This document shows, piece after piece, positions 10,064-64,000 of a DNA stretch of 64,000 bases. Within the stretch, counting starts at the first letter, position 1, and every line of letters begins with the position of its first letter. The notes below the pieces were generated by a model, which was given only the letters and a program-made list of their open reading frames with translations, searched no databases and was not told the DNA's origin. The position numbers were made by a program, and so were the translations under genes. The stretch covers positions 9,846,564-9,910,563 of the forward strand of contig CM082585.2 of assembly GCA_040954595.2 (NCBI GenBank). Direction: 5' to 3'. This DNA is from Balanoglossus misakiensis. Its lineage: Eukaryota > Animalia > Hemichordata.

Positions 10064-10189
10064 GTGTGAATGCAGGGTTAAGCACCTCGATTTACACCGC
10101 GCTTGTAAAATCGCCTCGTCCATTTCGGCAAAACACAAAGTCACTGGAAGGACTAGTACCAGAAGCACAAAAAGTAAATAATCAGCCAT
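10064..10189 (-). CDS. ANOS1: Anosmin-1 (Kallmann syndrome protein) coding exon 1: signal peptide plus start of the Cys-rich domain
   Basis: MADYLLFVLLVLVLPVTLCFAEMDEAILQARCKSRCLTLHSH followed by donor gtgagt. A hydrophobic signal peptide precedes ARCKSRCLTLH, which resembles human ANOS1 ARCASRCLSLQ. Confidence 0.8.
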
Positions 10190-22153: not shown

Positions 22154-38175
<16,022 letters not shown>

Positions 38176-38913: not shown

Positions 38914-41799
38914 CGTCCAAGCAAGCAGGTAAAAAACTGGATCACCACATTTATATGGGCGGATACCTGATCTCCAATTTCTGTTTGTACAGACTGACCC
39001 TAGGATCTCGCACTGCCCTCAATCAACTTTATAAACTGCACGAATCAAGATCCCAGATTTGCAAACTCTTGTCTACAAAAACTGGCCCCATATGACAAAC
39101 TAAGCAACAACCATCTCGAAAAAGCATTTCAACTGGTAAAGCACATTTCACATTGACAGAAATCGTTACAGAAGTCAAGGAGTGGAACATTTGTCGATCT
39201 TGATTGCCAGGTAGATCTCTATCGAACTCGGTATTTCGATGGGCACTTGAGGTTAAAGGTCAAGTCTGTCCCTGATAGATGCCTAAAGACCAAGACAATA
39301 TGGCAATCAAAAGAACACAATCGGTAGTCATTACTGTTTATGGCAATTGTACAAGTTGTTGCACTGAAACAACACTATTAAAGTGTGGCACACTAGTTCT
39401 CGCCTGGAGTACCAGCCGACTCATAGTACCTCATGAAATCTGACCTAAATTTAGTATTCAAACTTAATTAAAGGTCCAAAGGTACCTGAATTGCAGAACA
39501 GTTTAACAATCAGTTTTCACAGGAATCTCCAATGTAGCAACACTTCACTTGACCATAATGAATGTGGTTAATGTCCAGGGGGTTAACCCTCCTAGAACTG
39601 AGGTTACATGTAGAAACAGGGCAAAGTCAAATTTGATGCCATCATCACATCAGTTGGGCTAGACAAATCTATTCCGAAAATCACACCACTGTACCCTTGT
39701 CTGTCCTGGTTAACACCAACCCACCTTTTCTGCTGTAGGCCCTGAACCGTTACTGACTCTGACTACTTGAAATATATGGAAGCAAGGATTCCATAAAGGA
39801 ATTCACGGGCCATGTGACTGTGTAAATAATTATACTAATACTTCCAAGAACAATGGGAAGGTTTTCAAAACAATTCCCCACAAAAACTGGTTACAGGAAT
39901 AAAGCTTCTGCCCAAATGACTGGATGTTTTCTCAAGCTCTCCTGGATACAGTGGGGTCATGTATTCATCCTAAGCCTCAATGTCACTGTTCACGGTCGAG
40001 TGACAACCAGGCATTCAGGCAACAAAAGGAACGTCCACAAGGTGGGGCCCTAGTCGGGATCACCTGTACCAGGGGGCAAATGTCTCTGATTCAACCGGTT
40101 CATACTGAAATGTGTATGTGTTAAGTGTGCAAAATCAACCTTTCAACACCAATCATTTAGTAAGATATGACTAATGCTTTTGGAATTTACAGCACTTTAG
40201 CTAAAATTAATAATTATCATGACCTTACCACATAAAAATACATAAACTTCCCAAAACGGAATGATTGCATCTCCATTATTTCCGAACATTACATTTTGGT
40301 CATTATATTTCATCCATGAAAATAGCAAGTTTTAATGTTCTTCAAGACATTCATGAAGATGTTTGCCATTGCCAGAGTGCTATTCTTATCCTGTTACTAG
40401 GGAAACATATTACAGTATATTAAATATTCATACTTATATTGTATAAAACTATTCATGAGTTCACATGTTTACCAATTCTCGATTTTTTTAAATATTGAGC
40501 CTTGTAATTTTATCAGGATGGTAATTTTTCAATATGCATTTTGTAATTATAAACCTTAATTGATCTGTTTTTGTCTCTATGTTATCGTAAATGTAACGTA
40601 TATATATATATATTTATCCTCTCAATAGAATGTAAGGTTTTCAATTAAATTTTTTGCAAAATGATTTGATACATGGAATGAATGAAATCTGAAACAGTAC
40701 GGGACAGCAGATTATTTCATATAGTTTCAGATATCACCATCTCCCATTTGACGAATTAATATCGCACAGAATGAATTTTTAAGGCAATGATGACTTGCAA
40801 TAGGATATTATGTGACCCCACCATCAAAGATAGGTCAAGAAAGCATTTATAACCAAAAGGGCTGGGGCATCGTCCTGCTGATATTGTTCAATCTATGCAG
40901 CTAACGCTTTTGTTTTTTTCAAGGACTCTGCCACTCCTCTTTGCTTGTAGAAATTAAAACCACCATCAACAAACACGGCAAGGAAAAAGCTGATGCAGTC
41001 TACAAAACTTGTAATGCTCCTTCAACTACTTAAGCGTTCCACAAGACAGTCTTAAGACGTTTCTGAGACAAAAAAAATATCAATGGTTTCAAACGCTCAC
41101 CAGATTTTTGTGTCATTGTGTAGCACTGTGTGTTTTACTATTTGCTAGACTGTAGTGATTTTTACACTCAATAAACTGATAAGTTTGGTCAGAGCAATAT
41201 ATCAAAACAATCGCCATGGTGTAATTTACTGACTTATCTTGTTTCTTTCAAAGCAGTCTACTGATCTTGCGACAAGAGTCGGTGGGCGTATATATCTGGA
41301 CTTTGGGACTTTAAAAAATCGACCCTCTGTTGTTGATAACCCTTGAAATTAATGGAAATGATCTCGTTGCCAACACATGAATCCAAGGGAGAAAGTTGGA
41401 TGGAGAGTAAAATTGCCCACACCCATGACCATTCATGAGTATGACACTGATAAAAGTTGTGACTGGATTTGTTACATTTCAACATAAAGAGAAGTAATAC
41501 CTAATACAGTACATGAAATGAACCCTACTAGAACATCACATAAACATCAAGACAAGGCCTTTAAAACTGTTACTTGAGCATATTTTAACGTATTAGTAAA
41601 TAAGCATTTACAAATTATCGTTGCCAATGACAGAAAAAGAATATTATTTGCATCCAGGCTGAGAGACACCCATTGTATTAAAATACCGGAACTAATGCAA
41701 GATTGCAATCTTTCCGCGAATTTCCTCGATCAGGGTACAAAATATGCGAGATCATGGGTAACAATCATTCCAAACTGCTGTGAAAAGTGGCAGGTTTTA

Positions 41800-43560
41800 T
41801 TATAAGTAAACTTTCGAGTTGTGTTGGGGCTTTACGTAACGATTTCTATCTATCGCCACGGCCGTTATCGAATGTAGCAGAAATGAAGTAAACACAATAA
41901 TCTCTGATCCCGGATCACAAAACACCTATGTACTATCAGGTGGTTGGCGGGCCCCAGACAGAAAGAGTTTGACAGTGTGGACTGAATTTTGCCATGAGTC
42001 CACATTCCGGAGGTCAGATGTGTTGAGAACCCCGCCTTTGCAAAACAATAGAAAGGGGACGTGTCAGACGAACTAACTACTGCTTTCACTTTTCCGGGTT
42101 CGGACCGGTAGCAAACATTTCACCTGGTGTATTTGACGAGAGAAGTGATGTGGGGATAAAAGTTTTCTGCCATCAGAAAGTACTTTTTTCAATAACCGTT
42201 AGAGTCGCCATCGGGAGTTTTGCGAGATCGAGTTGATTCAAAATCAAGCGTTGCCAGAAATAGCGTTTTTTCTACAATATACCAAACCGAGTCTTCACAC
42301 ATTCACACCTGCCCTCGTGTACGTCCGGTAACACCTTTTCGTAACACCGACGCCGATGGGGACCCCAAATTGCAAGTTCTGGGGTGTACTTTATCATCAA
42401 AATTAGAACAGTAGGAAACAAATATGAGATCCTTACCTTGTGTTACAAGCTTATGATATTTCCAGTAGCACTTTTGCGCTCGGATGTCGCGAAATTCATA
42501 AGTATGTTGTCGGTGATCGCATTCAATTTCAACCGGCACACCCAATATGGTAGAACGCTATACGTCATGGCTTTGCGGAAGGATAATTGATAGGTAATTC
42601 CAACGAAGCGCGTATTTCCAAACTGTAAGATTGTTGGCTTTTTATTAAATTCACAACATTTTATAGGTTCTATTTTAGAGTTTACACATAGTATTTGTCT
42701 GTTTCTGATAAATAAAGACAGAACGGACAAAATAAATCTTGCGCCACAAACTGAGCCACCCCTAAATATAATGGTATGGCAGGGGAACCATTAATTTATT
42801 AACACATTACCCAAAATGCCCAATGCAACATGGCCGCTCATGGGCCAGAAGTCTGGTCAACTCTGAGGTGGTAGGTACACGACCTCCCGCGCCCGGTGAC
42901 CGCTCTGTGATTGTAGCATTAGGATTCTTCAATCGTCACCTCAAAACACATTGTAGGTAACAGCATCATTAACATTCGCTCATGGCAATATATGATTTCT
43001 TGATCGCCTTTTCATCACTGCATATCGCGACATCGGGGGTCAAAGTCCACATGTTTGCATGTGTACGATTTCCCCTATGCAATGCCTATGGTGCATAATT
43101 CAGGAAGACCTCTTTCCTGGATTATAGTTCTCGAAATATTTGGTCAACACATTTACAGGGAAGTCGGGCATATAATTTCGAATTCGATTCTGTCAGGCTT
43201 CAATCAATGGTACAACTGAGTTAATTTTGAGCTTTTGAATGAGTTACCCATCTGCCCAACTTCCGGGTTCAGTTGGAAGGTGAAATATTTCCTGTTAAAT
43301 TTCACGAGTTGTGACGCCGTGTTAAAACAAGTACGTGAGCATCTGGAAAATGTGGTGGCTGTGCCAGATTTGTATTTGTCAAATATAGATCTGTAAATAT
43401 ATGAACTTGGAAGGGATAAGCTGTCTGTATATAGATGGCGCTGTTCATCACCTTGGACACGTATACGAAACATGCCATTGCCATAGCCAGGTGCATCCTC
43501 CCAGGTGACCAAATAATAGCTGATATTAAAACCAGAGCGTAGGTGTCATAATAAGTAGAA
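41800..43560. promoter_or_regulatory. Putative divergent promoter region for MYO7A (minus) and the TPR-SGNH gene (plus)
   Basis: Locally CpG-rich stretch between two divergently oriented genes. Minus-strand donor caag|gtaagg at 42436 is a candidate non-coding first exon. ETS-type motif ACTTCCGG at 43259-43266. Both first coding exons begin at splice acceptors (38238 and 45185), so upstream UTR exons are expected. Confidence 0.45.
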
Positions 43561-43736: not shown

Positions 43737-45225
43737 GTATGAGTAACAAGGGTATCTGTACAGTTTCAGATAGATGAATTTGTGTGGTAATCCGGCCAGA
43801 CACTGGCGTGGTTGAAATTCTGGAACTCTCTGCATGTGTGCCCAATACTTATTGTTCTTAGCAACTGTGATAACATGTCAATTATTAATCAGGTCCCATT
43901 GAATTGAGCTGACTAGGCAATATATCATTCTGGGTAAATGTACAATGTATCTTTGCATCTGTGAATGTGATAACCTTTGAACTTTTAACCCAGAACACTT
44001 GTGAGATTATTCAGATTTGCCACTTTTTATATGAATTTTGTTTAAAATATATACAGAAATAACGAAGTTAAACACTTTTGAAGTTTGAAGGATATGAATA
44101 TGAGAATCGGCATGGAAAAAAATGAGTTTTGTTAAAATCGGACAAATTTGAACCATGGGAAAAGCAATATATCATTTCTTCTGTGATGTGTCCTGAGTTG
44201 ACATTATGCAAATGATATGCAGAATGAGTGGTTATTTGGACGCATACAGCCAAATGACTTGCACATACCTGCATGTGGTGTCATTTCTGGAGGAGATTCT
44301 GCGGTTTTGCTTGCTTCATCATGGAGAAACCTGGTGGCAAAGTTCTTGGAAGATTTCATAGGTATATGTATAAGAAATCACACGAACCATTTTGGCTATC
44401 TCGTAATCAAGACAAATGGCGTGACGCGGTAAAGTGGTTTTCTGTGTATGACAGTCAGACTTGTAATTTCATTTCTGGATTTTTTCTGTCTGGTTAACCA
44501 ATCGACAAGATTTGTAAAATTCCAAGCCTTTTAGTTTACGGGCTTGTATGCTTGTAAATCTAAGAATGTTGGCCTCGTATGACCACATCTCACACAAGTC
44601 AAGACATGAAGAGTATTACTCTATATGGTACCTGTCTAAGCCTTTCAACGCCATATTTAACTTGTCGTCTCTTTCAAAAAATTAGCCCTCATATCTTTTT
44701 CCTTTTTTTTTCTCAAATTTTGATCATGACCTGCAGACAATCGAAAAGTATTTCCACTTGGTCTAAAAATAAGGGAAAATGTACTAAAAAATGTGTGAAA
44801 ATTATAAAAATATGTTGCACCACATTTTGAGTATTTTGTAAAACTGCGTGGGTTGGTTTTGCGTGGGTGTCTGCAGGTGTCAGAGGTTATCCCAGTTGGC
44901 AAAGAGTGGCGCATTAAGAATGGGAGGCTTGAAAGTGGTATGCCATTTTCAGTTTTGCGAGTCTCTGGGAGAGGTCCTGCTATAGGCAAAAGTCTCCAGA
45001 TGCAAATATTTCTGCGGTAAGTCTCTCAGACTGGTGTTCTATACAGGTGTGATGAGAACTCTTATCTTGGAGAATATGTGCATCTGTGGCATTTATATGA
45101 GTGCACACCGTCACACATCTTAGGCTTAGGTTTTTTTGTGTAGGTCAAATAAACTAAGACTTGAAATGTTTGTTTTAACCGTAGAACTGACAGTGACACT
45201 GGGCTGACAGAACAAGACATCAAAG

Positions 45226-48200
45226 ATGAAGTTCTATCTGCACATGGAGTCAGCGCCCGAATTCACCATGGTGGTGAAGTTAGATGATGACGGAGACAAG
45301 AAGGTCAATGATATCTTGCAAGTAAGTAGGAACTTGAATTTGCCGTATCATTTTTCTGAAGTTAAGGGTTCATGATCTGGAAAGAGCTGGAATTTCAGAC
45401 CATGGCATTACTGAAAAATACTAGTGTTCTGTGTGGTTTTGTTTGTACTGTGACGTAGACAGTAAAATGTACTCAAATTATTATTAAGTCTACGTGATGG
45501 TATTTAATGCACATATAGTGCTGGGAAGAAAACGAAACTTCACTGAGTGCGTGGGCAGTCGGTGCCAATGAGGACACGCGTTCCAATGATAAGTGTGACA
45601 TCGTATGACGCCTACACATCTACCACGTGGTTGTCATGCTTTGCAGGAGGAAGTTCTCTGTATATGAATATTAATACAGAGTAAACCCCTAACTAATATT
45701 GTTATCTGACAGTGACAACTGTGAAGAAGCCAGTGCTTGGGGTCATGACCGTGATTGATTTTTGGTCCGGTCTGATATATATGAAAAACTTGTTACCTCT
45801 GTATGTATACATGTAGACCTTGCACGTTGTGGTGAGTGTGGGTAAAAGATTTTCAAGTTTGTGTCTTTTTAAATCAAGATTATGTTTTACTTGCAGTTGT
45901 TTTCTGAGAACTATAACATGAAGCATGGAGAAGTGCGGACACTCCAACCAAAGGATATCTATCTACAGACACATGACCGGTATGTGCTGACTGCATAATT
46001 GTATGCGTTATTACCATAGTGCAAAGTTTGGAAGACATATGAAAAGGGTGTATCTAGCCGTTTTGAACTGCCTGAAAAATAATTTCCCCCATTTTCTTTC
46101 CACCATTAACCTACACAGCAAGAAGCTAAGCTGTTCAGATTCTGTCTTAAAAATCAAAGAGAAATCTGATGTCTACGTACGCCTCTTGTGTGATCAACCG
46201 GAGGAAAAGGAAACCAAAGAAAAGCATAAGAAATCAGAACCTCGTGAAGTGAAACCAGAACCTTGTGAAGTGACAACAAAAAAATCAGAGGAAAAATTGA
46301 AAGAAAAAAAGGAAGTTAAGGAACAGCTGTCGAAACCTGTGAAAGAAAACCCTGTCTTGTCAAAGGGTAAGTGAATTATAAATGAATCAATCAATCAATC
46401 AATGATTGGATGGATGAAGGAAGGAAGGAATGAATGAATGATTGATTGGGTAATTGATTGATTGATTGAATGAATGTATGAATGAATGAATGAATGAATG
46501 AATGAATGAATGAATGACTAAAGAAATTTAGTATTTTTGAACTAACAACATTCTTGCAAATACCCTGTATTTCAGAACCAGCCCCTGTAAAAACGAAGGG
46601 CAAGGCATCTGTTCCACCAGTTTGTAGGTGCAAGAAAGCCACTCGGCCACCCAGTGATAAGTCTGGTGCCAAGGCCAAAACAAAAAAGATGACTAAAGAG
46701 GAGGAATATATTGCCGAAAAACTACAGACTGATTACACTGTCCATGTGGAAGGTCCAAGTTGTGGACTGTTTGGACTTGACAGCGACGAGGAAACAGAAA
46801 TCGATTCGCGTGAGAAACGTGGACGATATAAACTGGATATGGTTGTCAAACCAGACGAAAAAACAATCTGGTACTGTTGTGTGAAAAATCTAACTCTGCT
46901 TCCTTTTAGGGACTGTGCACAAATTCAAGTTACAGAGCATTATGAGTTTGGACATTTTCAGACATAAAGTAAAACCTGTCTAAACCGAACACCAAAGGGA
47001 AGGAAGAAATTATTCAGTTTGCAGAGTGTGCGGTTTATAGAGGTTCTTTTAACATGTGTTTCTATGTCAAAGAGGCAGGAAATGTGTTCAGCATAGACTA
47101 GGTTTTGTTAAGATGGGTTTTTACTGTATATTCATCTGTGTGGAGCCAATGAATTCACAGGCAGCGTATCATAAGACTTGGAGTTTCTGTTTTATTTGCC
47201 TTCACAGCATAAAAGCTGAACAGATCTCGGAAGATGAAGAATCGGACGATGACGATGGCAATGTCATGGTGAAGGCCAAGAAGTATCTGGAGGAGAGCAA
47301 GTGCTCGAAGGCGCGAGAGATTTATCGGAACGCTCTGGAGGAGAACCCCCAGAGCAAGGATGCACTAGTTGGCATGTGTAAGTGTCAGAGGTGAGAGTTC
47401 AAAGGTCAGGGCCTGTGTAATGTAAACAAAAAATGTGACCGTGACTGCAGTCTGTTTATTCACTCCCTCACCGTAGCAGATCCATTTGAACTTCACATGC
47501 CACAGTTGTTGTTGTTGTTGTTGTTATATATTTCAAATTGTTGTACCTTCCAGTTCGTGTTTATCGGAGAGCTGGTCGCCTTGAAGAAGCACTTGAGTAT
47601 CTCAAACAGGCGGACAAATTGTATCGATACAACTACAGGATTAATCAAATGTGAGTCTTAAAGGGACAAAGTCTCTGTTTTTGATGTCAAAATCCATTAA
47701 ATACCTACTCCAACTTTTCTGCAGAAAACATGAGGTGCAAGTCTTAGGGAAAACAGAAGTAATACTGATTATTGTCCGCTGTTTCTGTAGGCTAGGGGAG
47801 ACCTATCTGGAGCTGAAGAACGGTATTGAATCTGTCGTGGCCTACACGATCTGCATGCGCTCCAAAGATAAAATGAGTAAACGACGGTTGCAGGATATTC
47901 ATTTCGGCATGAGCAAAGGGTTCCTCATGGCTGGCAAAAAGGTGGAAGGGCTCAAAACACTACAGGTAAGAGTGACAGTGTCATTTCGTTCAACTGGAAG
48001 AGTTCAAAGAATCATAGTAACTTGATTCAGTAAAAAGTCTTGAAAAAAAAGTGGCAGTTTCCTCCAAGGTTGGGACTGTGACACATGTTTGCTGTCTGTC
48101 AGAGCTGTGATGAACCAGACAGTCATAATTATACATGATGATATCACACTGTTTTGATCTGAGGTTCTGAGCTCAATTTCAGACTTACCCCCCTCCTTCC

Positions 48201-51200
48201 ATGTATAAAGATCCAACGCTGCCATTGAGATCAATGAAGTTGGACCAAACCACAGTGGTGAAAGGGGTTAAAGTATCATAAGATAACCAGTTATTTCATG
48301 AAATGAACAGGATGTTCGCCCTTTCCCCCCTGCAATGTATATGAAAGTTTTACATGAGATATAATAACCCTTGCCTTCCAATTGTACAGACTCTGCTGAA
48401 AGAAAACATTGAGCACCACAAAGCATTGCTGGAGTACGCGTCGATGATTTACACCAAGTCGCCTCTGGGCCACAAGGAATCTATCACCATGGCGCTGACT
48501 GTGTTGACCCAATCCAAAGGTAGGAAAATCTGACACGGCTTACTTTGGATGTTTATAGGCCAGAATATTTCATTGTGCCATTCTCCGGGGTTCTTTGTTC
48601 AAATTGGCAAAATTTAGACTCCAAAATAGAATCAACCATGGGTTGCAACTGGGTGCATGTATACTGAACGTCCAATGTGAACTGAAATACCAAAGTTGAT
48701 GTTGATGTTTTTACATAGAAAATCAGTAAGAAGCTTTGATCAGTGGTTTGCAGTGTACTTCGATCTACCCCGACTGTGTGGTATCTACGTCAAATCTCCC
48801 TGAAATCTCACAACTGTGCACAAGATAACAAAACATGACCTTTATACATATATGCGCGTAATGGTATTATCACGGTGTCATGTCTGTCTCTTCATTTTTC
48901 ACCACGATATTCTCTTTTTCCTTTCCGCAGGCAAGGACAAAGAAGCGGCACAACTTTTGATAAAAATGCTGCGTCATCAAAACGGAATGAAATTTTTACA
49001 AAGGTAAACCTGAAGTGAAATTGATTTGACTTGTTCACAACACACAGTGAAAGCTTTAGTTTTTAGTTCCAGACATTGGTAAGTGTTTATGACCAACTAT
49101 ATTTTACATTTTGAAACAAATTGTTTTCTTTCAGTGAGATACATGAAGCCTGGAGTTCGGTGTCAGCTCTGTCATTTCTCTGCAATCAGCTCAGAGACCT
49201 TGGAGGTGAGTTGAAGTAACACTTTACCCATAATCCATGGAGTCATGTGATATGTTATTTAGCCAATCATGACTGATTAGTGGAAGCCATCTTGTTTTGT
49301 CTGTATGTTCCCTTTATTCCTGTTTCTGTCATAGTTTTATCCGACTGTACAAGTTAGGTTTTTCAGGGGACTTTTACACAGTAAAAAGGTCAAAAGGTCA
49401 CATGAGTTGCACTGATTTGAGATGGAATATTGTCTTCAGTTTGCGTTCAGTCTTTTGGTTCGTCGGTAACGAGTCACCCGGAAGTCTACCAAGAAACTGT
49501 TTGAAAAATGAAAACAAAATTCCATGTCACGTTCAAGAGTTGACTGGCTGAATGTATATCTTTATCAAACACAGCTATGCCCACAAACATGTAGCTGTGA
49601 TGACTAGAGACAAACATTAAGTTATGTGATGAGCATCCTGACTTTTTGATGTTTGTCCTCCTCACTTCACCTTTATGGTTTCTACCCCATCTAGGTTATA
49701 AATATTAACCATACTTTAACTGAAACGCATCACAAGGAAGCTGGTGCTTTCTGTCTGCTTTTCCAGGGACGATATGACGTTCAGACTACATACATGTATA
49801 TCACAGTATCGCACATCTGTTTGTCTATACTCAAGTGCATGTTCCTGACAATGAGAGCTACAGTGTCACTGGCGCTATTTTTATTCATAGCCTGGGTGAA
49901 TATCATCATCACACACTTCCACAATGTCTGTGTGATGGAGTATGAGCTGATGACAAACACTCAGTATGTGACAACATCCGAGATATCTCGTACATCAGCA
50001 GCTCCTCAAAACAAGATCGACAATTTTGTTTGGTTCCAATTATTGATATTTTAGCCAATTTTATAGGTGCACTACAGTAAAATTTGGAACAAAAATTGAC
50101 AATGATCAGATATTGATCACATTCTGTACCACACTTCATATACCATACTCATTACCATATTGTGCCACAGCTGAATGCATGAAACTGTGTCAAATATTTC
50201 CCTCTGCTGAGGAAAGAACTGAAAAAGTGAACTATGCTTTGCTATGTTTAGAGACTTGGGAAGGATTCAGACTGGGTGTATATCATTACCAACCATTGTT
50301 TGTGATTTGGCAGCAGTGATTGAGAACGATACATATTCAGTCTGGCGTTAGCGGCACACAACCTCCTACATATATCATCAGATATGAACTGCGCAAAACG
50401 TTTCTCGCTTTCCATTTCATTTCACGAGCCTAAAAAAATCACCAAAAAAAGCACAAATTGGTCAATGTCTCGGTGGTAAATGAAGATGTCCCGGTCAGAA
50501 AGTTCGGATTGGATGAATACCATCAGCAAACACCGCAAGGAATCATGATGCAGTGTTTGTTGATGATATGTATCCAGTTCGAGAATCAACAACGGAAACG
50601 ACGGTTACTTTTTCCCGATTTCCATTTCTTCCATCATGCATTCGCAAGGTCAGAGGTCAAAGTGCATGGCCTCTTGGGTCCATTGGCTAAATATCAGTAA
50701 CATCAGCGTTCATACCCAAGCTGGGAGCTACCAGATTCAGTTTGCTGTTTCCAAGGCGCTTTACATTGATGCTATCACAATGGCTACTTCCCAGTGTCAT
50801 AGCACCACGGTAATCTTGCCCTCAGCAAACCTGGTAGCTCACACATTTGCTGTGCTACATTCACTCATGGTACAATGACTAACTTAAATATAGGGATGAT
50901 GCAAAGAAATTGCAAGTTGTTCTCAAGTTGAGTGTAACTTTCTTTGAAAATCATGCTTGTTTAGTTAGAGAGCTCACTGGGTGCTACTCTTCATCTTCTC
51001 TCTCCTGTTACCTAGCGATACCGGAGGCAACAAAAATCATCCAGAGAGCCGTGGGAGTAGAACCCAAGAATCCCCAACCGTTGCTGAATTTGATGCATAT
51101 GTATGAGATACAGGACATGCACCAAGCAGCCATAGATCTGGCGTTGTAAGTTTAAGTTTTAAAAAATCTCAACGGGGTTGTAGTTCATCAAGTTTGACCA

Positions 51201-53578
51201 TGCTATATATAACCCACCAGCTGATTGGTTGGTCACAAGTTGAATACCCAATCAGTGTCATTGATTTTGACCAATTGTACAATTCACCAGCTGATTGGTT
51301 GGTTGAAATTTGAATACCCAATCAATGTCACAGATGTTGACCAATTGCAGAATTCACCTGCTGGGTGGTTGGTCATTGAATTAGGCAGTCAGAGCCGATA
51401 CAGACATTACATGCTTCATGATGTTCAGTTTTAATGATGTAGGCAAGTGTTCCACAGTTAGCAATGATGCTTCTAACTCTCTCTTCCTGAGTCAGAGTGA
51501 TGTCAACTTTAGTTCATACTCACTGAGCTGACTGGAGGAAAACTTACACCAGGAACTGACATCACACGGTATTCTTGTTTATAGATACATGTATTACTTT
51601 TCAAGATTCAGATCCATCTGTCTTCTCTTTCTTTCAGAGATTATTTTAAAAAGCATAAAGATTTGGACATCGCTGGTGTACAATGTTCAAGTTTCATCCC
51701 ACTGATAGAATGTGTTAAACACGATATTTATCTGAATGGTAAGGTTAATCCCATTGTGATACCAGTTATTGCATTCAGAAATACAGCTGTTTTCTGTCAT
51801 TATTTGAACCATGTCATTTATTACATTTATACTTTTGAAAGTGCTATAGGGAATTATTAAAAACAATGTCATTGACTTCTGCAGACCTGGAAAAAATCCG
51901 CCTATGGAGTACGGCAATTTCCTGCCAAAACGACAAATGACCACTCACCAATGAGAACCAAGGGAATTGTAACAATGAGGGCACTTTTCAAAATGGCGCT
52001 CTTCAAGATAATTTTTGTGACATATAATTTATAGCAAATTTACTCATTTTCCATTTGTAATGGCATGTTTTTTTGCAGATGCATCAACAGCCATGTCGGG
52101 GATCATCATCACCGTGGAATATCCACAAGATCGAGTGTACACCGACGACGAACTCTATATCTTGGCAGTGCTTTTTACTGTTGTCAAAATTTTATTTGTG
52201 AAGGGTTCCTACCGGATTCTGCATGGAATTAATAGGCTTCTCGGTACGTTCATTGAAACTTTCACCATGGCAGCTAAAATTTATCTAAATTTAAGCTTAA
52301 TATCTTTTTGTAAAGTACTCCTTGAAAAAAACCATTGAATCGTGTGTATGGTTCTTGTTACAGATCCTTGTTACAAAGATCGCGACCTTCACCTGACCTT
52401 GATTCGCAACGAAGCCGCATACTACGCCACCATCAATCAGCTGATGGCGATTGACATGGTGCCACTGCCAGATTATCCAAAATTTATTTATTTTGCTTCA
52501 GACAGTCATTGTCTGACACCAGCATGGCGGAGCATACAATACAAGGTACAGCAAACAGATTTCTGAACTAATTTGCATATAAAATGTGTGTGCACCTGGT
52601 GTGTTTGTGATAATGCATTAACATAGATTCTCAGAAGCATCACCATCTCAGTTTCTGACCATGCACCTCTTTTGAGTTCATGTCAAAGGTCACTAGCAAA
52701 TGTTAATAATGACTTCTTATGTTTCTTGCAGGGATCTAAGCACATTATCCACCCACTCCTCGCTACTGGTTGTAAGATTTGGCATCTGAGACCCGAGGGC
52801 ACTTTCTATCCCAAGGAAAATTTCTTCAGTATGATGAAAATTCTACCCAAGCGAGCCACGGTGATTTTTAACATGGGGGAGATTGATTGCAGAGAGGGAA
52901 TAACCTTTGCCGTGGAAAAGTGTAAATATGATGTGAGTTGTACCGACTTTTGTTCAAAATGGTTTTTGCTAATGGAGTTCTAATGGTTTGTCAGAAGAGA
53001 AATGGTAGATTATTCTGTACGTATGCATGTCATGATGTTTTGTTTTGTGGTGTGATCAAACATGGCTGACTTGGTCAAACTATCACTGTCATTACATTTC
53101 AGACAATCGAGGAAGGCATCTCCAAAGTGATCGACATCTATCTCAAAGTGATGAAGAAACTCAAGTCCCTGTACAATCTGCGAGTCTTTGTTCATCCGGT
53201 CAATCCAGTGTTGGACCTCACCAGATCCATGGTGAAAAGGTTCAACGTAGCTCTGGAAAAAGCTGTCCACGAAACACCCGGATTGATCTGGTTAGACCTA
53301 GCCAAGGATTTGTTGACACCGTCTGGAGATCAGTTAGATCCCCAATATAGTAAGTGTTCTTGACACAGTCTTTTCCTGTGATGGTTTAATATCACACGAC
53401 CATAATAATCAATCAAACTGTGTACAGCAAAATAGAATGTTGGAGATACAAGCAAATGTTTACATCTGGTTGAATTTCATAAACATGTTCTTGTGTCTCA
53501 ACAGGTCTTGATCAATCTCATTTGCATCCCTGCTATCTCCGGCTGTTGGAAAAGGCGCTGGACAAGAAACGCAGCTGA
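45226..53578 (+). CDS. Uncharacterised ~845-aa protein: small N-terminal (possibly ubiquitin-like) domain, Lys/Glu-rich linker, TPR-like helical repeats, C-terminal SGNH/GDSL-like hydrolase domain; 17 coding exons
   Basis: GT-AG exons with consistent phases: 45226-45321 (MKFYLHMESAPEFTMVVKL), 45897-45979, 46119-46366, 46576-46870, 47208-47377, 47554-47650, 47791-47965, 48390-48519, 48931-49003, 49135-49205, 51016-51145, 51638-51738, 52079-52243, 52364-52545 (YFASDSHCL), 52732-52932 (IFNMGEIDCREG), 53103-53349, 53505-53578 (LDQSHLHP...stop). TPR-like segments include AREIYRNALEENPQSKDALVGM, AGRLEEALEYLKQA and ATKIIQRAVGVEPKNPQPLLNL. Confidence 0.85.
46380..46517. repeat. Compound (AATC)/(GAAG)/(GATT)/(GAAT)n microsatellite
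   Basis: Directly visible tetranucleotide runs in an intron. Confidence 0.9.
48099..48176 (-). repeat. Inverted copy of the 30263-30340 repeat
   Basis: Reverse complement is near-identical to 30263-30340. Confidence 0.85.
51215..51380. repeat. ~70-bp tandem minisatellite, about 2.3 copies
   Basis: Unit caccagctgattggttggt...tgaatacccaatca-tgtca...ttgaccaattg-a-aatt is repeated. Confidence 0.85.
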
Positions 53579-54445
53579 TCAGTGAGCCAATCAGAGCCAA
53601 CCAGAAGAAGAAGACAACTCCATTGAAAGAGAGACATATGGAATTATAATCTCATGCTTTTATTTTACAATGTATGTTAGTCTCTAGGTGATATTTGCAT
53701 TCACAACTCTTCGAAGGAACCAAGAGTATCTATCCTGTTCATGCATATCTATTTTAAAATTTATAATTTGTAAATTTTTAACATAGAAATTATTTGAACT
53801 GACCTCTGATAAAACAGAGGAGTGTAATCTCGGAATCAGAAATTCAGGGAATGGTACTGAATTTGACTTTATACACCACCAATCAATCTGATTTTCATAT
53901 TAATCAGCATTTATTCTAGATTTTATGGTAATGAGAAGATTGACCAAAATAACAAATAGGAGGACGGTTAGCAAGTCTTATATAACAAAATTCTTTAATT
54001 ACAAATGAGAAGAATTACACTTCATTTGTTATGTGTTAAGGACAACTTTTTGTGCTATATAGATTCATTAAGTGTCTTTTACCATTGCTTTGAAGCATGC
54101 ATTCATAGTCAGACATTGCAAATGGATGGCATTTTTGACATGAAACACTTCTTGAGAGCAACTCAAATATCATGGAATTGTGAGAGCCTGGTAGGGTGAA
54201 TCCCATGTGTGACATCTGTGAACACTTAGAATTATTGTTTTTAGGATGAAACAACTCATTGCATACAAAAGATGCCTGCAATAAGATATTGAAGTAACTG
54301 TGAGACTCAGATGTTTTTTTCATACATATGTTTCTTAAGTCTAGACGAGTTGTAAACTCTGAAGTAAAAACAATGTATTCAGTGGCCGGAATGAACATTT
54401 GATGTTTATATGCACGTTTATGGTCTGTGTTTAATTTTTTTGTTG

Positions 54446-55317: not shown

Positions 55318-58300
55318 TTATCGCCGTTGTGGCCAGGTCTGGCCTTTCTTCTCCAGCAGATGACTAATGTATGATGTGATTAAGTCATCCATTTTATAAC
55401 CCTGAAAAGTTAATTTGTTTTTAATTAATTTAAAAAATAACTAAAACCACTCCCATGGCAACAGAGTGACCCTCATGTAGATGGCTTTTATCCCCCTTTC
55501 ATTCAATGTAATGGTTAGACGCACTTGTACACAGAGGTTATTTATTCATAAAATAAATACGCAAAATCCCTTACCATTGGTGTGAAGCAGGTCAGTTTAG
55601 TTCCCTTGACCAGATTGCCAAAAGTGATGTGGAAATAACCATGTCCACTGCTCCACGTGGATATTCTGGAGAATGGAAAACTCTGCAGTTTGGCTTTGGT
55701 TTTTGATTCAAAGATAGTCACGCCATGCATGCTGATCCCTATCACCAGAATCTCCGGCATTTCTGGGTGAGAATTTTGCTGAAATCAGAGACAAGAATTG
55801 TTATGAAGGTACAGCGACACCAACACGTTTACATCCTGTGTCTTCAGGAACAGTTTCAGATCAGGAAAGTTTCTTATTTAACATTTGGAGTCTCAGAACA
55901 TGCAAACACACAGCGGTAGTTCAATGATAACCTTTGAAAATTGTATGTTACCTTGACATCATAGAAACTGCATCCAAACGTTGGCCACTTGCCTACGATC
56001 TTCATGAAAGCCACCTTGGCTTCAGATCGTGTCATACCATCAGTATGTCTGCTGTGTGCTGCTTCAATCTCCTGGAAAGAAGAGTGAACATTGACACTGA
56101 ATAAACACCAGACTTGCTACTGCCTGTGGTTTTAGATACGTACATGACAGGTTACCTGCATACAGCTTTTTCAGAACAAACCCAAGTCAATACCCCACCT
56201 GAGACATGAAGACTGTGATAGCTAGAAATTGACTAGTTAATGTGGTGATAATTTTTGTTCTTACCTTCCTCCAGTTTTCAGGAGTCATAACCGACAACAA
56301 ATCTTCTGGTACATACTCTTGTCTCTTGTGACTGGCAATCGAAATGAACACAAAAAACTATGATAATTACACTTTGACTTGGTGGGTTTTCAACGATAAA
56401 AACTCTCCCACCTGTATTTGAAATTTGACTTAATTACTTTCAATTTTTTGGGAGAGAAACTTGCTCATCTGTTATTTTATGTCATTGCATCTCTTGGATG
56501 GTAAGGCAACTTACGAGATTTGACCAAATTCGGTTTTATCTTCACCATATCTGACTCTGTATTGTAATGCTGCTAATTCTATTGCTTCCTCCTTACTGCA
56601 GGGATGATAACCTCTCAATACTTTGGGTAATTCCTGCAATGGTATTAAACAGCTGAATAGTATTGACATTGCTTAACCACACTTGATTATACAGTACTAC
56701 AGACTTGAGGAACACACCTAAACTGTAGAAAATAGTGACAAGGTACAAACCACTCACCTGATGATAATGGAAAACACAGTCAGCATTTACATCTTTGCCA
56801 GGAACCACATTCAACCAGAGTTTCCTCATGAAATAGATCTGATAACTCGCAACATGGCTGCCTGAATTGCATAAAAACAAAAGAATGTTATATGCATGTA
56901 TTGTCTAGAGCATTCTTTACCTACCTTGGTAGTTTCTGAGAATATGTTTCAGAATGGATTATGCGAAAAGTACCTCAGAGTTTTCCATTTTTGCTATCAT
57001 TAACCTGTTCATCATACGTCAAATTACCTTCTGAAATGGTGATTTATCTATCACGAATTTTACAGTGTAGAATTATACACACGTGCAAGTTACACACTTC
57101 TACTTCTTTCACTAAATGTGCTTTTAAAGTAGTACACACAGAATTTTTCAGAACATATTTTAATTCTTTCCAATTTGATAGAGAAGTGCCTGAAAGTGCA
57201 ATTTATGTGCAATTATTTTGCAGCTGATGATTATAGATAATGTAACTGTCTATTAAAATTTTTCAAGCTGACCCTAACACCACAAGTTTAGCAAATTTTA
57301 CATTAACAGGAGTGTCACTTTTATGTGAAACAGACTTACCAGCCCCTGACAATAGTAAATATCCCACATCAACATCAGCTGCAAGTCAAGTTTAAATGTC
57401 ACAAATGTTTGATCAGTTCAAGGTCTCAAGCAAACATTTCTAAAATCCAGGAAGGTATTGATCAGTGTAAACCATAGTATGCTATAGTTGATTCAAAACC
57501 AAGTGGGTCGCTGAAACCAAAATTACAAATTCTAGGAAGGAATATTTTCAACACGGAATGAAGTGTTAGTACTCACATTCAGAGACTTTACAGCAGAGGC
57601 AGGAAGCTTTTTGGGGGAGAGAAGCATGCAGTCTTCTGAAATGCAAAAGGTTCATAGCAGCTAGAGACTGTGTTAATAGCAGGATCAGATATTACCAACC
57701 CACCAGTTATGGCTGGGGTATGATTGCAAGGGATAAGTGTCCAGGAGGTAACTGCCCTAGAACAGTTGATCATTGCAACACACTCTTGGTCACCTGGCAA
57801 ACAGATGATTAGGTTATTGTAGATTTTGATATCTATCAAAAGAGAAGAGGGATTTTCTGCAACAAGTCGCATTTTACTTGAGGTAGACCAGAATGACAAA
57901 GAAACCAGAAGACTTAGAAATGCAAGGGTAAGTAAAAAGTTGTTGTCAAAAGGAGATAGCAAGTCCTATTTACAGTAGGACATGTATTTTATGCAGCATT
58001 TTTCCAGAAGTATATGTTCTGGATTTAGTGTCAAAGGCCACTCACCTGATTCTTTGGATTTCATGGTTCTTGTCCAATCAATAGCATTGCCAACAAAGTC
58101 AAACAGGAAGTCATTGTCGGGAATGCTGAGAACTGGAAAAAGTGGATGATCGCAGTTAGATTGACTGATGCTTAGAATTCATCATTATATAGTGAGATGG
58201 TTTGAAAATGCTGATTTCTTCATAGTAGGAATAACATTACTCACCTTTGTCTGCAAAGTTGACAAACAGGTTGAATCCTTCTCCAGATAACAGTTTGACA

Positions 58301-58383
58301 TGTTGTACAATGAGTTGCGATAATTCTTTGGCTCGGGTCCAGTAATGCACAACAAATGGCTGCGGTTGAAACAGAAATAATGT

Positions 58384-58469
<86 letters not shown>

Positions 58470-59946
58470 ACCACAGCTGTATAGGATAATGGGAATTGTT
58501 GACCTTCCTACCTGTGTAGCACCATTTGGGAAATGTACCAAATGGGTCATTTCCTTAGATTTATTCTGCACTGCGTTGACTTCGATCAAATTTGGCGGCT
58601 GTTTGCGATGACCTGTTTTCAGTACGCTCTGAAATCTGGCATAGCTCTGGTTAGCCTCTTCAATACTCTGCCTGGATAAGAGAAACTTCACCAGGTGTGG
58701 GAGAAGAGTTTCGCTGCATGTGAACAATCCTGTCACAAGCAGCATCAATTCCCAGCATCTCTCTTCAGTATGCCTAAGTAATGAATGAATAAATGTTTAT
58801 TTATTTGAAAGGTAGCATGATGCATTCATATGTTCCTAAAGAACTAGGAATGTGATTGGTTTTGTATTCTGGACAGTTACAGCATGTCATGGATGCACTG
58901 TTAGAAAATGGTATGTTGACCACATGACTTGAAAATGACAACAGCACTACAATTTCTTCACACACACTTACTTATGTTTGTTGTGGGTGAGTTGTTTCAT
59001 AATTTGGCAGTACACCTCATCCCTCAGAGGTTCAAAGATGATAGCTGGTCTGAATATGTGGTCCGTCACTTCAGTGTTTCCACGACTTCTCTTCAGGTCA
59101 TTGATGTAAGCCAAGATCAGTGAGATTTGTTAAAGAAAACACTTGAAATAATCTCTTAATTAAAGTTCCATCATATTTGGCTTATTCCAAAATTTCTATA
59201 TGTTGCATATCAAATGCCAATCTGATTAAAATCAGATGTAGGGTACGCTTGGTTTACCATTACCCGTGATTGATTTACTGTTTAACTAGATTATTGCGCC
59301 TGAAAGGATATATGTATAGATGTGGACTGCCTGTTTTGCAAGGTCTTGGTTGATGAGGGTTTTCTTCAGGAGTGGTTCTTTGATGGGTTCTTTGCTGTAG
59401 CTCCACAGTTTGTCTTCTGTGTGGTGTCGGAACATCCCTTTCTTGACAGGAGGTCTGCAGTAAATCAATTAATTAATTAATTAATCAATCAATCAATCCA
59501 TCCATTGTTATGATAATACATAATAACTGCACAAGACAATTTCAAGTCTCTTATTGGTTGAAAGAAAATCTTGTCATGTTAACATGCTTCAGCCAGACTT
59601 ACCTGAAGTAGGTATGAGAATACTCTTCTAGTGTATGAAGTGCAGCTTGGTCTTCAGCATTTGTTTTCTCACCTCCCATACTAGAAGCCACGACTTTCTC
59701 TCTTGGACTGTACTGAACCCCACTTGTGTCCTTCACATCTTGGTGGGTGATCTCTAACACAGCCACTGCTTCTGCAGTGCTGGCGTTTTTGTCAGATTCT
59801 CCGCCATGACCTCCTGACGTTCCCTCTTTCTTCGCATGCCCGTCAGTTTCCATGGCACCCTTTTCTGGTTTCGAGTCAGACACGCTAATTTCCACTTTAA
59901 GTTCACTTTTCTGGGCTGTGTCTGAAGAACCCACATTTGTTTCCAT
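55318..59946 (-). CDS. Motor-less myosin-VII-like protein: novel low-complexity N-terminus plus a single MyTH4-FERM module (diverged duplicate of the MYO7A 3' tail), about 598 aa
   Basis: Exons 59603-59946 (ACC-ATG-G start, METNVGSS...[12 protein letters not shown]), 59312-59454, 58972-59119 ([14 protein letters not shown]), 58512-58773, 58245-58359, 58046-58132, 56758-56861, 56515-56633, 56265-56331, 55952-56071 (WPTFGCSFY), 55575-55778 ([21 protein letters not shown]), 55318-55401 ([13 protein letters not shown]...stop). The frame is intact and intron positions and phases match the last 12 MYO7A exons. Confidence 0.9.
58384..58468. repeat. (GAT)n trinucleotide microsatellite, intronic
   Basis: About 28 perfect units, lying between exons 58512-58773 and 58245-58359. 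Confidence 0.95.
59120..59311 (-). other. U12-type AT-AC intron in the headless MyTH4-FERM gene
   Basis: 5' splice site ATATCCTTTC at 59311, branch-like TTCTTTAAC near 59129-59137, 3' end ATCTCAC at 59120. Splicing restores ...[13 protein letters not shown]. Same position and phase as the MYO7A AT-AC intron. Confidence 0.9.
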
Positions 59947-62409
59947 GGTAATTCGACTTCTGACAACACTTTCTAAGACTAGCCTTTCCACTTGATCTTA
60001 TCCAAGCATCAAAGTTATGTTTGGCCTACAGAGTATGATTTGGCGCATTTAACACACATACAGCATTCATAGAACTTGGGGATGAAAATGATCTTTTCAA
60101 CTACCAGTTACCATGCAATCCTGACAGTAGAGCTCTAAAGGTTTGATAGGATAATCAACACAAAACTTGGTCAACTCTGAAATCAAACCAAAAGTATCAT
60201 TATTAGAAGAGGTTTGGTATTTCCATAGAAAGTTTTCAAACAGCAACGTACACATGAAGTGATGAACAAGCAGCAACTGAGTGGCATTCTTAGGGAAATA
60301 TGCAGTGACAGCTATGTTCATGGGGCACATTTTATTACATTTCAAGGATTTAACTTTGTATGCAAAGAATGGCTTATAATACAGTACATTTCATTGTGTC
60401 TGGTGTAAAGGCCAATAAAGCGTGAACTAACCTTATGGTATGGGTCATACAGTCACAGAGAATACACTGTCTAGAATACAAAACCAATTATGTTCCCAGT
60501 TCTTTAGGAACATATGAATGCATCATGCTAACTTTCGAAAAATCACATTTAATCTTCCTAACGATATCAATTAATGAAAAAGTTACTGCTACACCATGGT
60601 TTGGTCTAATAGTCAGATTTTTAAAATAGAAGCAGTGTAAAATATCCACAAATGTGAAAAAAAAAAAACATTCTGAAGGTGTTCACGATTTGAATGGATT
60701 AATCAGAGCATAAAAAGTGACCTCTGAACTCTGTGACCCCCACAGATACTTGGGTATTATCACTCTTTCACAACACACAGTGTAGAACACAGCTAAAACA
60801 TTTTGCCTTTGTTGCGATACTTTAAAATTAAAGCATTGAAATCATGAATTTTCTATTTTTGTAACACACTGCATAGCAGAAAGTAGGCTGTTGGGGTTGC
60901 TATAAACTTCAACATCTCTCCAACCACTCCCCTCACATAAAAGCAGCAATAAAATCGTGTGTTCCACTTGTTAGTCTCTTGGCCAACTGGTCCTACTGAC
61001 TGAATGACCTGTTTTTCGGGTAGAGAGAAATTAATGCCATGCTATGCTAAACTTTCATTTACATTGCTGAAATTTTTCCTAGCATTATTTACACATGAAA
61101 AGGGTTACTTACCCCAATCACAAGACAAATGTTACACATACGCGATCCAAAATATGAGGGTGGGTCAAACCTGACCGGTCAGTCAGTGTGTGTATATGCG
61201 CAGACATAAAGTGAAGAGGCCTTGGCTTTTTGTGTTGAAATATTTCGAGTAGCGATTCTTTTCCTTTTACTGTCATGTGTTTGTAAACAAATATTTAGAA
61301 TGACAAGATGCTAGTTTTATGAAGCTGCTTGGGAGAAAGTAATAGCCACGAAACTGACCTCAATATTTGGTAAAAAATCAAGTTACACACAGGTCAGCTG
61401 AATTGAATCAGACAAGAAAAGATATCTGTTTTTGACTGATCATCACTAATACAGTATATAGCGACTGGTATTAAAAACTTCACCACAAAGACATTGATTT
61501 GTTCTTTCATAGAATTGTAATGCACTAAATGTAACAGCAGGCCACCTACTAGTCTCACGTTTCGACTTACATATAAAAGCTCGGAATCCACTCATACAGC
61601 TGACCTGTTCAATTGTGCTTTTCATATTAAAGTATTGTGAGAGTGACGCATTCCATTTTTGGCTGCGTGTCAATCATTTGCACAACTTTTTAGGAAAAAT
61701 AATGGCTTTTTGATACTGTCGTCACACAACTATTGTATGACATTTGTGGAATTCATGGTAATTAACAACTCTATCTCTTTTGCTGAAAGCTTCTAATGAC
61801 AAAATTCTGTTATAACAATAACATTTCAATTCATGATTGTCTAGAAGCCACATCATGGAAATCCTATATGTCATCAACACAGACTTATTGTAACCATGGT
61901 AACACTAAGATAATACCTGCTACACCATTATAATCAAACTGATTTAGCTCTGCAATACTTTAATGCTGAATACTAGTGTTCTATCAAGTACATGCAGCTC
62001 TCAACCAACCATTTATTTTTCACAATGCAAAGATTTGGGAACTGATTTTGTTTTATTCCTATCAAAAAAAAGTAAGTGCGTGCGCTCAAAGGTATTCACT
62101 TTCAAGCATGTAAACAACACCCAGCAGTTATCCGTGACCTCAAACCAGGTAAACCACAGTTCAAGGTTTCTGCAACACTGCAATATTTTAGCGCCACTTA
62201 ATCAAAGACTTAACCATAAAAAAGCACCCTCTTCCACTTTATTATGTCATGTTTACATTTCTGCAACCTGTGTTAAAAGTGTACTTTTCAAACAAGCCCA
62301 GCCTACATGTACACAGGTGTGTGCGTAAGCCAGGGGGCAGTCAGCAGTCTTCAAACTTCAAAGCATCCAATCGAATCCCAAGAAAGTGTATCGCTGAATG
62401 GTATGCGGA

Positions 62410-62700
62410 CTTACCTTCACCTGTTCGCTGTCAATATTCAAATTCGTGTCCTTAAACCATGTCCTAATTAATTAAGTAACACTTACCATTGACAAAATCA
62501 CGCACTCAACACTTATCGATTTTCTATCTTCACTCTGTTTCGTACACTTTCATATGTAAATTTTCGCGCATAATGTTTTTGCCTCGATCTGGATACCGGA
62601 AGTCTCGTTTTCGGTTCCAGGGAAGCAGACGACATTTATTACATTTCACTGTTTACGACGACGTCTGGCGTTTTACTGAAACTTCTCAAAGGTAACGTTC
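62410..62700. promoter_or_regulatory. Putative compact bidirectional promoter (headless MyTH4-FERM gene / SYCE1-like gene)
   Basis: CpG-rich patch with ETS-type motif CCGGAAGT at 62596-62603. Minus-strand donors g|gtaagt at 62414 and 62486 and a plus-strand donor aag|gtaacg at 62692 point away from each other. Confidence 0.5.
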
Positions 62701-62941
62701 TTTTATCACGCCTTTCACACAAAATTGATAATCTTGATTGCTTTATTTAACTCAGGTAGAATGGTGGCAAACGTATTTTCGAAAATCACATATTTCAGAG
62801 TCTCTCTAGTACCTCCATGGTAACATGAGCATAAACATAGCCACACTTGACAAACAGGTACATGTAACTGCATGTAACAAACGAACGTATTCATTTTACA
62901 TCATCTTAATACAGAATATACTGTCTTGGTTCGTCGTTGAA

Positions 62942-63916
62942 ATGGATTCCCCATTTCGTTTGGAAGTCATTTTTGACACCATACAGGAATTACAGCAAGG
63001 TGGGTTGAAACTTGAGACTATTATGATACAAATTTGAAATACATGTAATGTGGATAAGTTAGTGCACATCACTGTTGAACATCTTTAGTACCCATTTCAG
63101 TTTTCACCAGGATGGGAAGTTTAATACTTGATCTGATCTCAGCATCCAAAAATATAAGACACACATAAAAATGAGGTAGCATATAAATAGCTACCACGCT
63201 AGCTCAAAAAGTATTCACATGATGATTCGTATAATAAATTGTTACATTTATAAATGCTGATCCGTTCATCTCTCCTCTTTTAACAGCAAAGGCACTGAAT
63301 GAAAAGAAACTGAATGAGATCAGAAACAACAGAAGAAGCTTGGAAAATAAACTTGATGCTGGTAAAACCCACAAGAGAGATTTTATCTTGAAAACATATA
63401 TTCTCTATGAATTCAACTGACTTTTATTTAAATTGAATTTTAACTGCCAGTTTTTTGGATAAATAAAATAATAAAGTATTGAATTTATTTTCAGTTTCAG
63501 CCAGACATGCTCAAGCCAGTGACACCAATAACAAAATGGTGGAAACTCTTAAAATTGCTCAACACAAAGTGTCTCAGACTAAAAGTCACATTGACAGGTA
63601 AGTCACAAAAAATAATGAATAACTGCAATATATAATGCTGTACATGAAGATTTGCTTTACTTTTGATATATTAAGAATTTTATTTTCCACTATGTTACAA
63701 AAGGCTTAACATGAAAAAGAGATGATGCCAAAACTATAATCATTCCACTGTAGATTAGTTTTAGCTTGAAAATTTTCCAGCTTGATTTGATGCTGAAAAT
63801 AGTTTACATTTTCTGTCAATTGCTAGTCAAGAAGAAGCCAACCAGATTATAGGTAGAAGAATTAAAACTTTGAATGAAAAGGTGCAAGAAGAAGAGGCGA
63901 AGCAGCAAAATGAAAC
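62942..63916 (+). CDS. SYCE1: Synaptonemal complex central element protein 1-like (5' part; continues beyond the window)
   Basis: Exons 62942-62999, 63287-63361, 63495-63597 and 63827-63916 splice to MDSPFRLEVIFDTIQELQQAKALNEKKLNEIRNNRRSLENKLDAVSARHAQASDTNNKMVETLKIAQHKVSQTKSHIDSQEEANQIIGRRIKTLNEKVQEEEAKQ. This is colinear by eye with the recalled human SYCE1 core (RVEVLINRINEVQQAKKK...LQKELDSL...KKQETLRIL...ERISALNLQIEEEKNKQ). Confidence 0.7.
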
Positions 63917-64000
63917 GTGTGTATTAAATCATTTTTACTGGACTATTTTTTACAATCTTAATCACAACACTATTTCTGCAGAATGTTTGCTCTGAGGAAG

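Follow-up and report, generated by a model that had tools for sequence, protein, structure and literature searches.

A separately encoded, motor-less copy of the second MyTH4-FERM module of myosin VII in acorn worms

Can the tail of a myosin be kept as a gene of its own, and what would such a protein do without a motor? A locus of the acorn worm Balanoglossus misakiensis raises this question. It lies in a stretch of 64,000 nucleotides (contig CM082585.2 of assembly GCA_040954595.2, positions 9,846,564 to 9,910,563 of the forward strand), here called the window, in whose own coordinates all positions are given. The window holds the parent gene MYO7A, modelled as 42 coding exons on the minus strand (22154..38175) that encode 2172 amino acids (aa), intact and without an internal stop. 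A second minus-strand gene has its stop 17.1 kb from the MYO7A start codon, matching the distance of about 17 kb in an earlier note on this DNA. This paralog is intact and separate, and of myosin VII it encodes the second MyTH4-FERM module (MF2) alone; we are highly confident that it is real, separate and functional.

Modelled from the window coordinates, the paralog has 12 coding exons (59946-55318, minus strand) that encode 598 aa without an internal stop, in agreement with the open-framed, tail-only minus-strand gene of the earlier note; once an extra 39-nucleotide (nt) exon is included, the frame is still open across 13 exons and the protein has 611 aa. Over MYO7A residues 1650-2160, 248 of 503 positions are identical (49%), a likeness that is not due to chance, since single-exon tblastn E-values go down to 5e-26. 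Intron phases are common to both genes at 11 of 11 introns, as the note had stated, and its 11 pairs of exon sizes were all exact. Its description of a copy of the last 12 MYO7A exons stands as regards the structure; it had missed the 39-nt exon, and the first coding exon (344 nt in the paralog vs 131 nt for MYO7A exon 31) is homologous to its counterpart only over the last ~33 codons (E=4.1), the remainder being a new acidic N-terminus.

In the order of translation, and all on the minus strand, coding exon 1 (59603..59946) provides the ATG, an acidic low-complexity N-terminus of ~80-100 aa (isoelectric point, pI, 4.8) and then the start of MF2, a start homologous to the 3′ portion of exon 31 in MYO7A. 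Coding exon 2 (59312..59454, 143 nt) matches MYO7A exon 32 (155 nt), and the intron that follows it (intron 2, 59120..59311) is of the U12 AT-AC type in both the paralog and MYO7A (25871-25674). The MyTH4 part is encoded by exons 3 (58972..59119, 148 nt; gene model and tblastn) and 4 (58512..58773, 262 nt; Pfam MyTH4, E=1.6e-11, 77% identity to the protein of Ptychodera described below), and the F1 lobe of FERM by exons 5 (58245..58359, 115 nt) and 6 (58046..58132, 87 nt), both from the gene model. After the extra exon (57340..57378) come a FERM exon of 104 nt with the tryptophan and glutamine of the binding groove (56758..56861), an F2 exon of 119 nt with the groove lysine, arginine and tyrosine (56515..56633), both placed by gene model and alignment, a further F2 exon of 67 nt (56265..56331) and an F2/F3 exon of 120 nt (55952..56071), both from the gene model. 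F3 follows on an exon of 204 nt, which carries the basic pair equivalent to R2176/K2179 (55575..55778; gene model, Pfam and alignment), and the last coding exon contains the stop (55318..55401), with AATAAA downstream at 54920 and 54529. Intron 4 harbours a (CAT)n trinucleotide run of ~28 units (58382-58466).

Is anything of the motor protein left upstream? No motor, IQ, first MyTH4-FERM module (MF1) or SH3 sequence was found between the paralog and the window end at 64000: tblastn with MYO7A gave 13 matches above 38.3 kb and none above 59700, in line with the earlier note, which had seen no such exons before the neighbouring gene. The motor region gave no tblastn match above 38.3 kb, and the sole match there in the MF1 range is the paralogous MyTH4 exon of the paralog itself. 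The ATG at 59946 is preceded by an in-frame stop at 60000-59998, so the note's assignment of an own start was correct. Of the hallmarks of a class VII motor protein, the gene thus lacks the motor, the IQ neck, MF1 and SH3, and has the Myo7-descended MF2.

The same short form is found in other acorn worms. Searching with exon 4 among proteins of 154-2000 aa, a range that full-length Myo7 exceeds, we obtained a match with 1 of 155 candidates, a Ptychodera flava protein of 658 aa named 'myosin-VIIa-like' (P0001), which is weak evidence against a fused form; it is identical to the window model with the extra exon at 440 of 610 positions. P0001 in turn gave 49 matches among 7996 candidates, the top one being a 'myosin-VIIa-like' protein of 563 aa from Saccoglossus kowalevskii (P0002; 58% identical). 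On these identities, the window would stem from an enteropneust nearer Ptychodera. Both orthologs have an acidic N-terminus (pI 4.1-4.8) where MYO7A has SH3. A Pfam scan of the Ptychodera ortholog detected no motor family, and no PH domain before MyTH4 was detected in Pfam scans of this ortholog and of paralog exon 1. Within exon 1, ~30 residues (59686-59790, minus strand) are well conserved with the Ptychodera ortholog and not evident in Saccoglossus, while the rest of the N-terminus is divergent; this stretch is a candidate short binding motif.

Several signals point to purifying selection. Across 504 codons, the proportions of nonsynonymous (pN) and synonymous (pS) differences between paralog and MYO7A are 0.33 and 0.785, the latter saturated, so that dN/dS against MYO7A is undefined. 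Identity at the three codon positions is 0.63/0.70/0.41, and columns that are invariant among eight ordinary Myo7 rows are kept more often than variable ones (131/185 vs 84/233; p=1.6e-12). Intron sequence could be aligned between the two genes in 0 of 11 pairs. Identity to the Ptychodera ortholog is 76-82% across the four parts of MF2; for F1 and F3 it is 78% and 81%, vs 45% and 56% to MYO7A. Together, these signals show that the paralog is under selective constraint, and with the gene structure and the short orthologs in two acorn worms they bear out the earlier note's central claim of a conserved, separately encoded MF2-only paralog.

These data also bear on the possibility that the locus is no separate working gene at all, being a decaying copy or else the 3′-terminal part of a longer myosin, with 5′ exons beyond the window or mis-assembled. 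Such an explanation could draw on the window ending 4 kb above the ATG and on a weak acceptor at 59959 (score 1.7, with splice matrices trained on 40 MYO7A introns), which would permit open reading into the ATG. However, two other genomes encode short orthologs that open with a non-myosin acidic segment, 13 exons are free of stops and frameshifts despite saturated synonymous sites, a plus-strand gene fills 62.9-64 kb and, among the best 150 library matches, no long protein is closer than ~40% overall. We consider a fragment or decaying copy very unlikely.

Does the encoded protein fold like its parental module? An AlphaFold model exists for the Ptychodera ortholog, not for the window protein; its mean predicted local distance difference test (pLDDT) score is 77, with values below 50 at residues 1-128 and at the insert that matches the 39-nt exon (418-428). 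With Foldseek, the top matches of this model were Myo7 MF2 structures, the best being human Myo7a MF2 with harmonin (5mv9; template modelling score, TM, 0.96 by target; root-mean-square deviation, rmsd, 1.9). An MF2 fold behind a disordered N-terminus is predicted.

How old is the gene, and did such a cut happen more than once? A third search returned 240 matches among 7992 candidates, and the best 120 of the 240 yielded further MF2-only proteins. From a total of 293 proteins, we collected those with an unrelated N-terminus whose alignment to MYO7A starts no earlier than ~residue 1669. They comprise sea-star group A (P0033, P0037 and P0198), with a basic Arg/Ser/Pro-rich N-terminus; sea-star group B from Asterias (P0245 and P0236), ~70% identical to Myo7; and a copepod set of ten proteins with a common three-residue start, one from Eurytemora and nine unnamed. 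All sea-star entries are named 'isoform X2', and longer genes may produce them as short isoforms. We rejected P0035 (EukProt) and other short matches as fragments, as they align to Myo7 from their first residues. Unnamed proteins of 580-870 aa (P0115, P0117, P0127 and others) have one MyTH4-FERM module that is 23-29% identical to Myo7; they form a separate stand-alone family, the module often following what we read as WW-like repeats. An Atlas cluster resembling them is mostly Oomycota.

Trees were built from hand-picked rows (52 in a quick tree, 28 in a careful one and 23 under LG+F+G4 with fast searches for the approximately unbiased, AU, test) that include no full-length echinoderm, Ptychodera or Saccoglossus Myo7. 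In the MyTH4-FERM tree that the earlier note had proposed, the three acorn-worm short proteins (window, Ptychodera and Saccoglossus) form a clade with support 100/100. Since this clade spans the Ptychodera and Saccoglossus lineages, which split more than 370 million years (My) ago (PMC4729200), the paralog is more than ~370 My old, and we infer that it arose by partial duplication of MYO7A before that time. The copepod set nests with copepod Myo7 (support 99/97). The AU test rejected a common origin of the acorn-worm and copepod sets (p=0.0005) and of all short proteins together (p<1e-50). It did not reject a single origin of the acorn-worm and sea-star proteins (p=0.55-0.61), a grouping that lacks support (51/0) and in which long branches meet, or a duplication confined to hemichordates (p=0.07). 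By these trees, MF2-only proteins would have at least two origins and up to four.

From this, we tentatively put forward a broader proposal, towards which we lean slightly less than away: that animals, in acorn worms, two sea-star groups and copepods, repeatedly split off a stand-alone myosin VII MF2 by the same cut, with at least two independent origins; that these proteins would be an unrecognised class setting Usher-type cargo load; and that in acorn worms a cassette exon would switch the cargo surface. The chief interest lies in the same cut seeming to have recurred; the function is what we infer.

The putative cassette is the 39-nt exon, a phase 1-1 exon within a 1184-nt intron, the longest of the paralog. 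Its translation shares 10 of 11 residues with the insert of the Ptychodera ortholog (E=5e-6); no counterpart is present in MYO7A or in the Saccoglossus short protein. Its donor is the best in its intron (score 10.7) and its acceptor is weak (3.1). Counted by hand on the alignment, the exon adds 13 aa to an F1 loop, directly before the equivalent of human G1982. These features make a cassette exon likely. In sea-star group A, P0033 and P0198 differ from P0037 by six residues in the same F1 loop, hinting at alternative splicing there too.

Where would transcription begin? Judged by splice scores, at least one exon probably precedes that with the ATG. An untranslated 5′ part of the ATG exon is predicted at 59947..60176 (minus strand; acceptor score 9.7) and contains six short upstream open reading frames (ORFs), while a CpG-rich non-coding first exon is predicted at 62415..62600 (minus strand), with donors after 62487 (10.7) and 62415 (13.0), placing non-coding exons near 62.4-62.5 kb. 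The bin 62501-63000 has an observed/expected (o/e) CpG ratio of 1.29, the highest of all 500-bp bins in 38-64 kb (median 0.46). Given this CpG peak and the predicted donors directly before a plus-strand gene starting at 62942, the paralog and this head-to-head gene likely have a CpG-rich promoter in common. The first four coding exons of this neighbour (62942..63916, plus strand) are coiled-coil-like and give an open 108-codon frame; the SYCE1 label that the earlier note gave this neighbour is unconfirmed, with no SYCE1 Pfam match on its single exons or ORFs.

What, then, might the protein do? Four explanations were ranked: an adaptor or competitor first, new partners second, trans-inhibition third and the fragment or decaying copy last. 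The first, which we find nearly as easy to believe as to doubt, holds that the paralog is a motor-free MF2 adaptor that binds MF2-type partners, anchoring them or competing with full-length MYO7A. Transcribed from the CpG-rich promoter near 62.5 kb, it would bind a C-terminal peptide in its FERM groove, by analogy with harmonin-a on vertebrate MF2; without a motor and the SANS-binding MF1, it would hold its partners, not move them. The 39-nt exon would tune the choice of partner, because the loop that it extends lies at the G1982 surface, which affects harmonin binding. In Myo7b numbering, the harmonin-a C-terminus sits in the MF2 groove via W1895, Q1914, K1918, R1921, F1923, S2082 and L2083; mutants of G1982, K2118 and G2163 are reported to bind harmonin more weakly, and Myo7b L2083W to abolish binding (PMC5493754). 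By alignment, the window protein keeps five of the seven groove residues (W1895, Q1914, K1918, R1921 and F1923/Y2026, with Y for F as in Myo7a) and the equivalents of K2118 and G2163; these groove residues are compatible with harmonin binding and no proof of it. As precedents, an isolated Myo7B tail is described as getting to microvilli through its cargo (PMC8693963), and headless Myo10 as a cargo competitor (PMC6345916).

Several points weigh against such an adaptor. The S2082 equivalent is proline in all three acorn-worm short proteins, and that of L2083 is M/S/L, with M in the window protein. Retention of the groove is weak support, because a background conservation of 71% predicts five of five kept residues ~18% of the time (0.71^5). 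Reports describe a C-terminal motif of harmonin conserved in vertebrates, an isolated Myo7A tail that remained cytosolic in enterocytes (PMC8693963) and an Arabidopsis headless myosin lacking a discernible phenotype (PMC3850447). Six upstream ATGs would precede the paralog start if the 60176 acceptor is used. Moreover, the distance to amphioxus Myo7 is 1.27 changes per site for the paralog vs 0.26 for MYO7A; by these branch lengths the paralog is evolving faster than its parent, a pattern equally in keeping with new and with old partners.

Indeed, the long branch is one of the observations behind the second explanation, that of a neofunctionalised scaffold with the old fold and a new set of partners independent of MYO7A, which might act in the germ line should its promoter also serve a meiotic neighbour. 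The F1 and F3 lobes, close to the Ptychodera ortholog and distant from MYO7A, the changes at S2082 and L2083, the new exon, the conserved N-terminal motif and the head-to-head layout with one CpG-rich region would all suit it. Yet groove and F3 surface residues are retained, the neighbour's identity as SYCE1 is unconfirmed and the first exon is only predicted, and we regard this explanation as plausible and somewhat unlikely.

Alternatively, the free MF2 might act on MYO7A directly, docking on the motor-neck of the full-length protein as the tail does in autoinhibition. Autoinhibition via the second FERM is stated in PMC10579538, and an isolated Myo7A tail is cited as a trans-acting inhibitor of the motor in vitro (Umeki 2009, via bioRxiv 10.1101/2024.09.17.613491). 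All three acorn-worm proteins have basic residues at the positions of R2176/K2179 (K/K, R/K and K/K), the window protein having K/K like the MYO7A of the window, a retention no greater than general conservation would predict. On the other hand, in the same preprint the RK-to-AA mutant is described as a poor activator in cells and much of the inhibition is placed in IQ5 (10.1101/2024.09.17.613491). An intramolecular tail would presumably out-compete a free one, F3 is just 56% identical to MYO7A, and the basic pair is lost in sea-star group B and in some copepod short proteins. Trans-inhibition thus appears improbable, and the adaptor or competitor remains our first choice; the earlier note's suggestion of one role or the other, adaptor or trans-acting regulator, is plausible. 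In Asterias group B (P0245 and P0236), the basic autoinhibition pair is replaced (M/Q) and the groove lysine is lost, so these proteins probably work differently from the acorn-worm gene.

The rest of the window adds some context. One or two plus-strand genes lie between MYO7A and the paralog (45200-53600), their exons matching TPR weakly (TPR_19, E=5.5e-4, short of the cut-off) and giving a weak SGNH/GDSL lead (score 0.82). The region 41500-43500 is rich in CpG (o/e 0.77-1.12), and both an ETS-like motif (43266) and a splice donor (near 42436) fall within it; it likely contains the MYO7A promoter and a non-coding first exon, head-to-head with a plus-strand gene, which would mirror the layout of the paralog. 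Downstream of MYO7A, an anosmin-type gene likely has its first exon at 9944-10363 (minus strand), where an ORF encodes a segment resembling a signal peptide and weakly matches the anosmin Cys-box (E=0.018).

Myosin VII tails serve as laboratory cargo traps, and MF2 carries deafness mutations. An MF2 kept alone for more than 370 My, with look-alikes that re-arose in copepods and are present in sea stars, provides natural test cases of which MF2 surfaces stay selected in the absence of transport and intramolecular folding. Genes of this kind would be missed by myosin surveys based on the motor domain and are hidden under names such as 'myosin-VIIa-like'. The entries P0001 and P0002, orthologs by their 100/100 clade, are a case in point, as this automatic name conceals the missing motor. 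In the literature searched, which leaves out most subscription journals, we found no paper on a Myo7 tail-only gene or on these two proteins; the word 'headless' is absent from the main text of one myosin survey (PMC5583752), and the headless gene of a shrimp survey is a muscle myosin as described there (PMC6537884). The earlier note's term 'undescribed' holds in so far as no paper was found and falls short in so far as the orthologs are annotated and headless genes have been described in plants (PMC3850447).

How does the paralog compare with known systems? With the MF2 of class VII (PDB 5mv9, 5mv8 and 5xbf) it has in common the module and the intron positions, including the U12 intron; it is 49% identical to the neighbouring MYO7A MF2, and the model of its ortholog superposes on 5mv9. 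It differs from MYO7A and MYO7B in lacking the motor, IQ, single alpha-helix (SAH), MF1 and SH3, and in having an acidic N-terminus, a 13-aa loop exon and proline for S2082. PLEKHH1-3 and the unnamed proteins of 580-870 aa likewise have MyTH4-FERM without a myosin motor; however, PLEKHH proteins have PH domains, the unnamed proteins are ~23-29% identical to Myo7 MF2, and neither derives from the Myo7 exon series. Headless Myo10, a vertebrate brain isoform, is likewise a MyTH4-FERM protein without a motor and is described as competing with its full-length motor; it comes from the same gene and keeps the coiled coil and PH, whereas the paralog is a separate, diverged gene with neither (PMC6345916). 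Nor does an internal start explain the paralog, which is 49% identical and has a locus of its own, 17 kb upstream of where MYO7A starts.

The closest parallel comes from plants, where separately encoded headless myosins are already known, none having been found for class VII in the literature searched. The headless class XI genes (Arabidopsis myosin-11E2 and 11E4 of Poales) are described as separate tail-only genes that arose by partial duplication, with shared intron phases, new 5′ sequence and, in one case, a position near the parent (PMC3850447; see also PMC3935558). In the old case, 11E4, the reported identity of ~48% (PMC3850447) is similar to that between paralog and MYO7A. The plant tails are of the coiled-coil/DIL type, not MyTH4-FERM, and belong to plants, not animals. 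In common with a headless gene made by partial duplication, the acorn-worm paralog has a separate locus of tail exons with the parental intron positions and is conserved across species under constraint.

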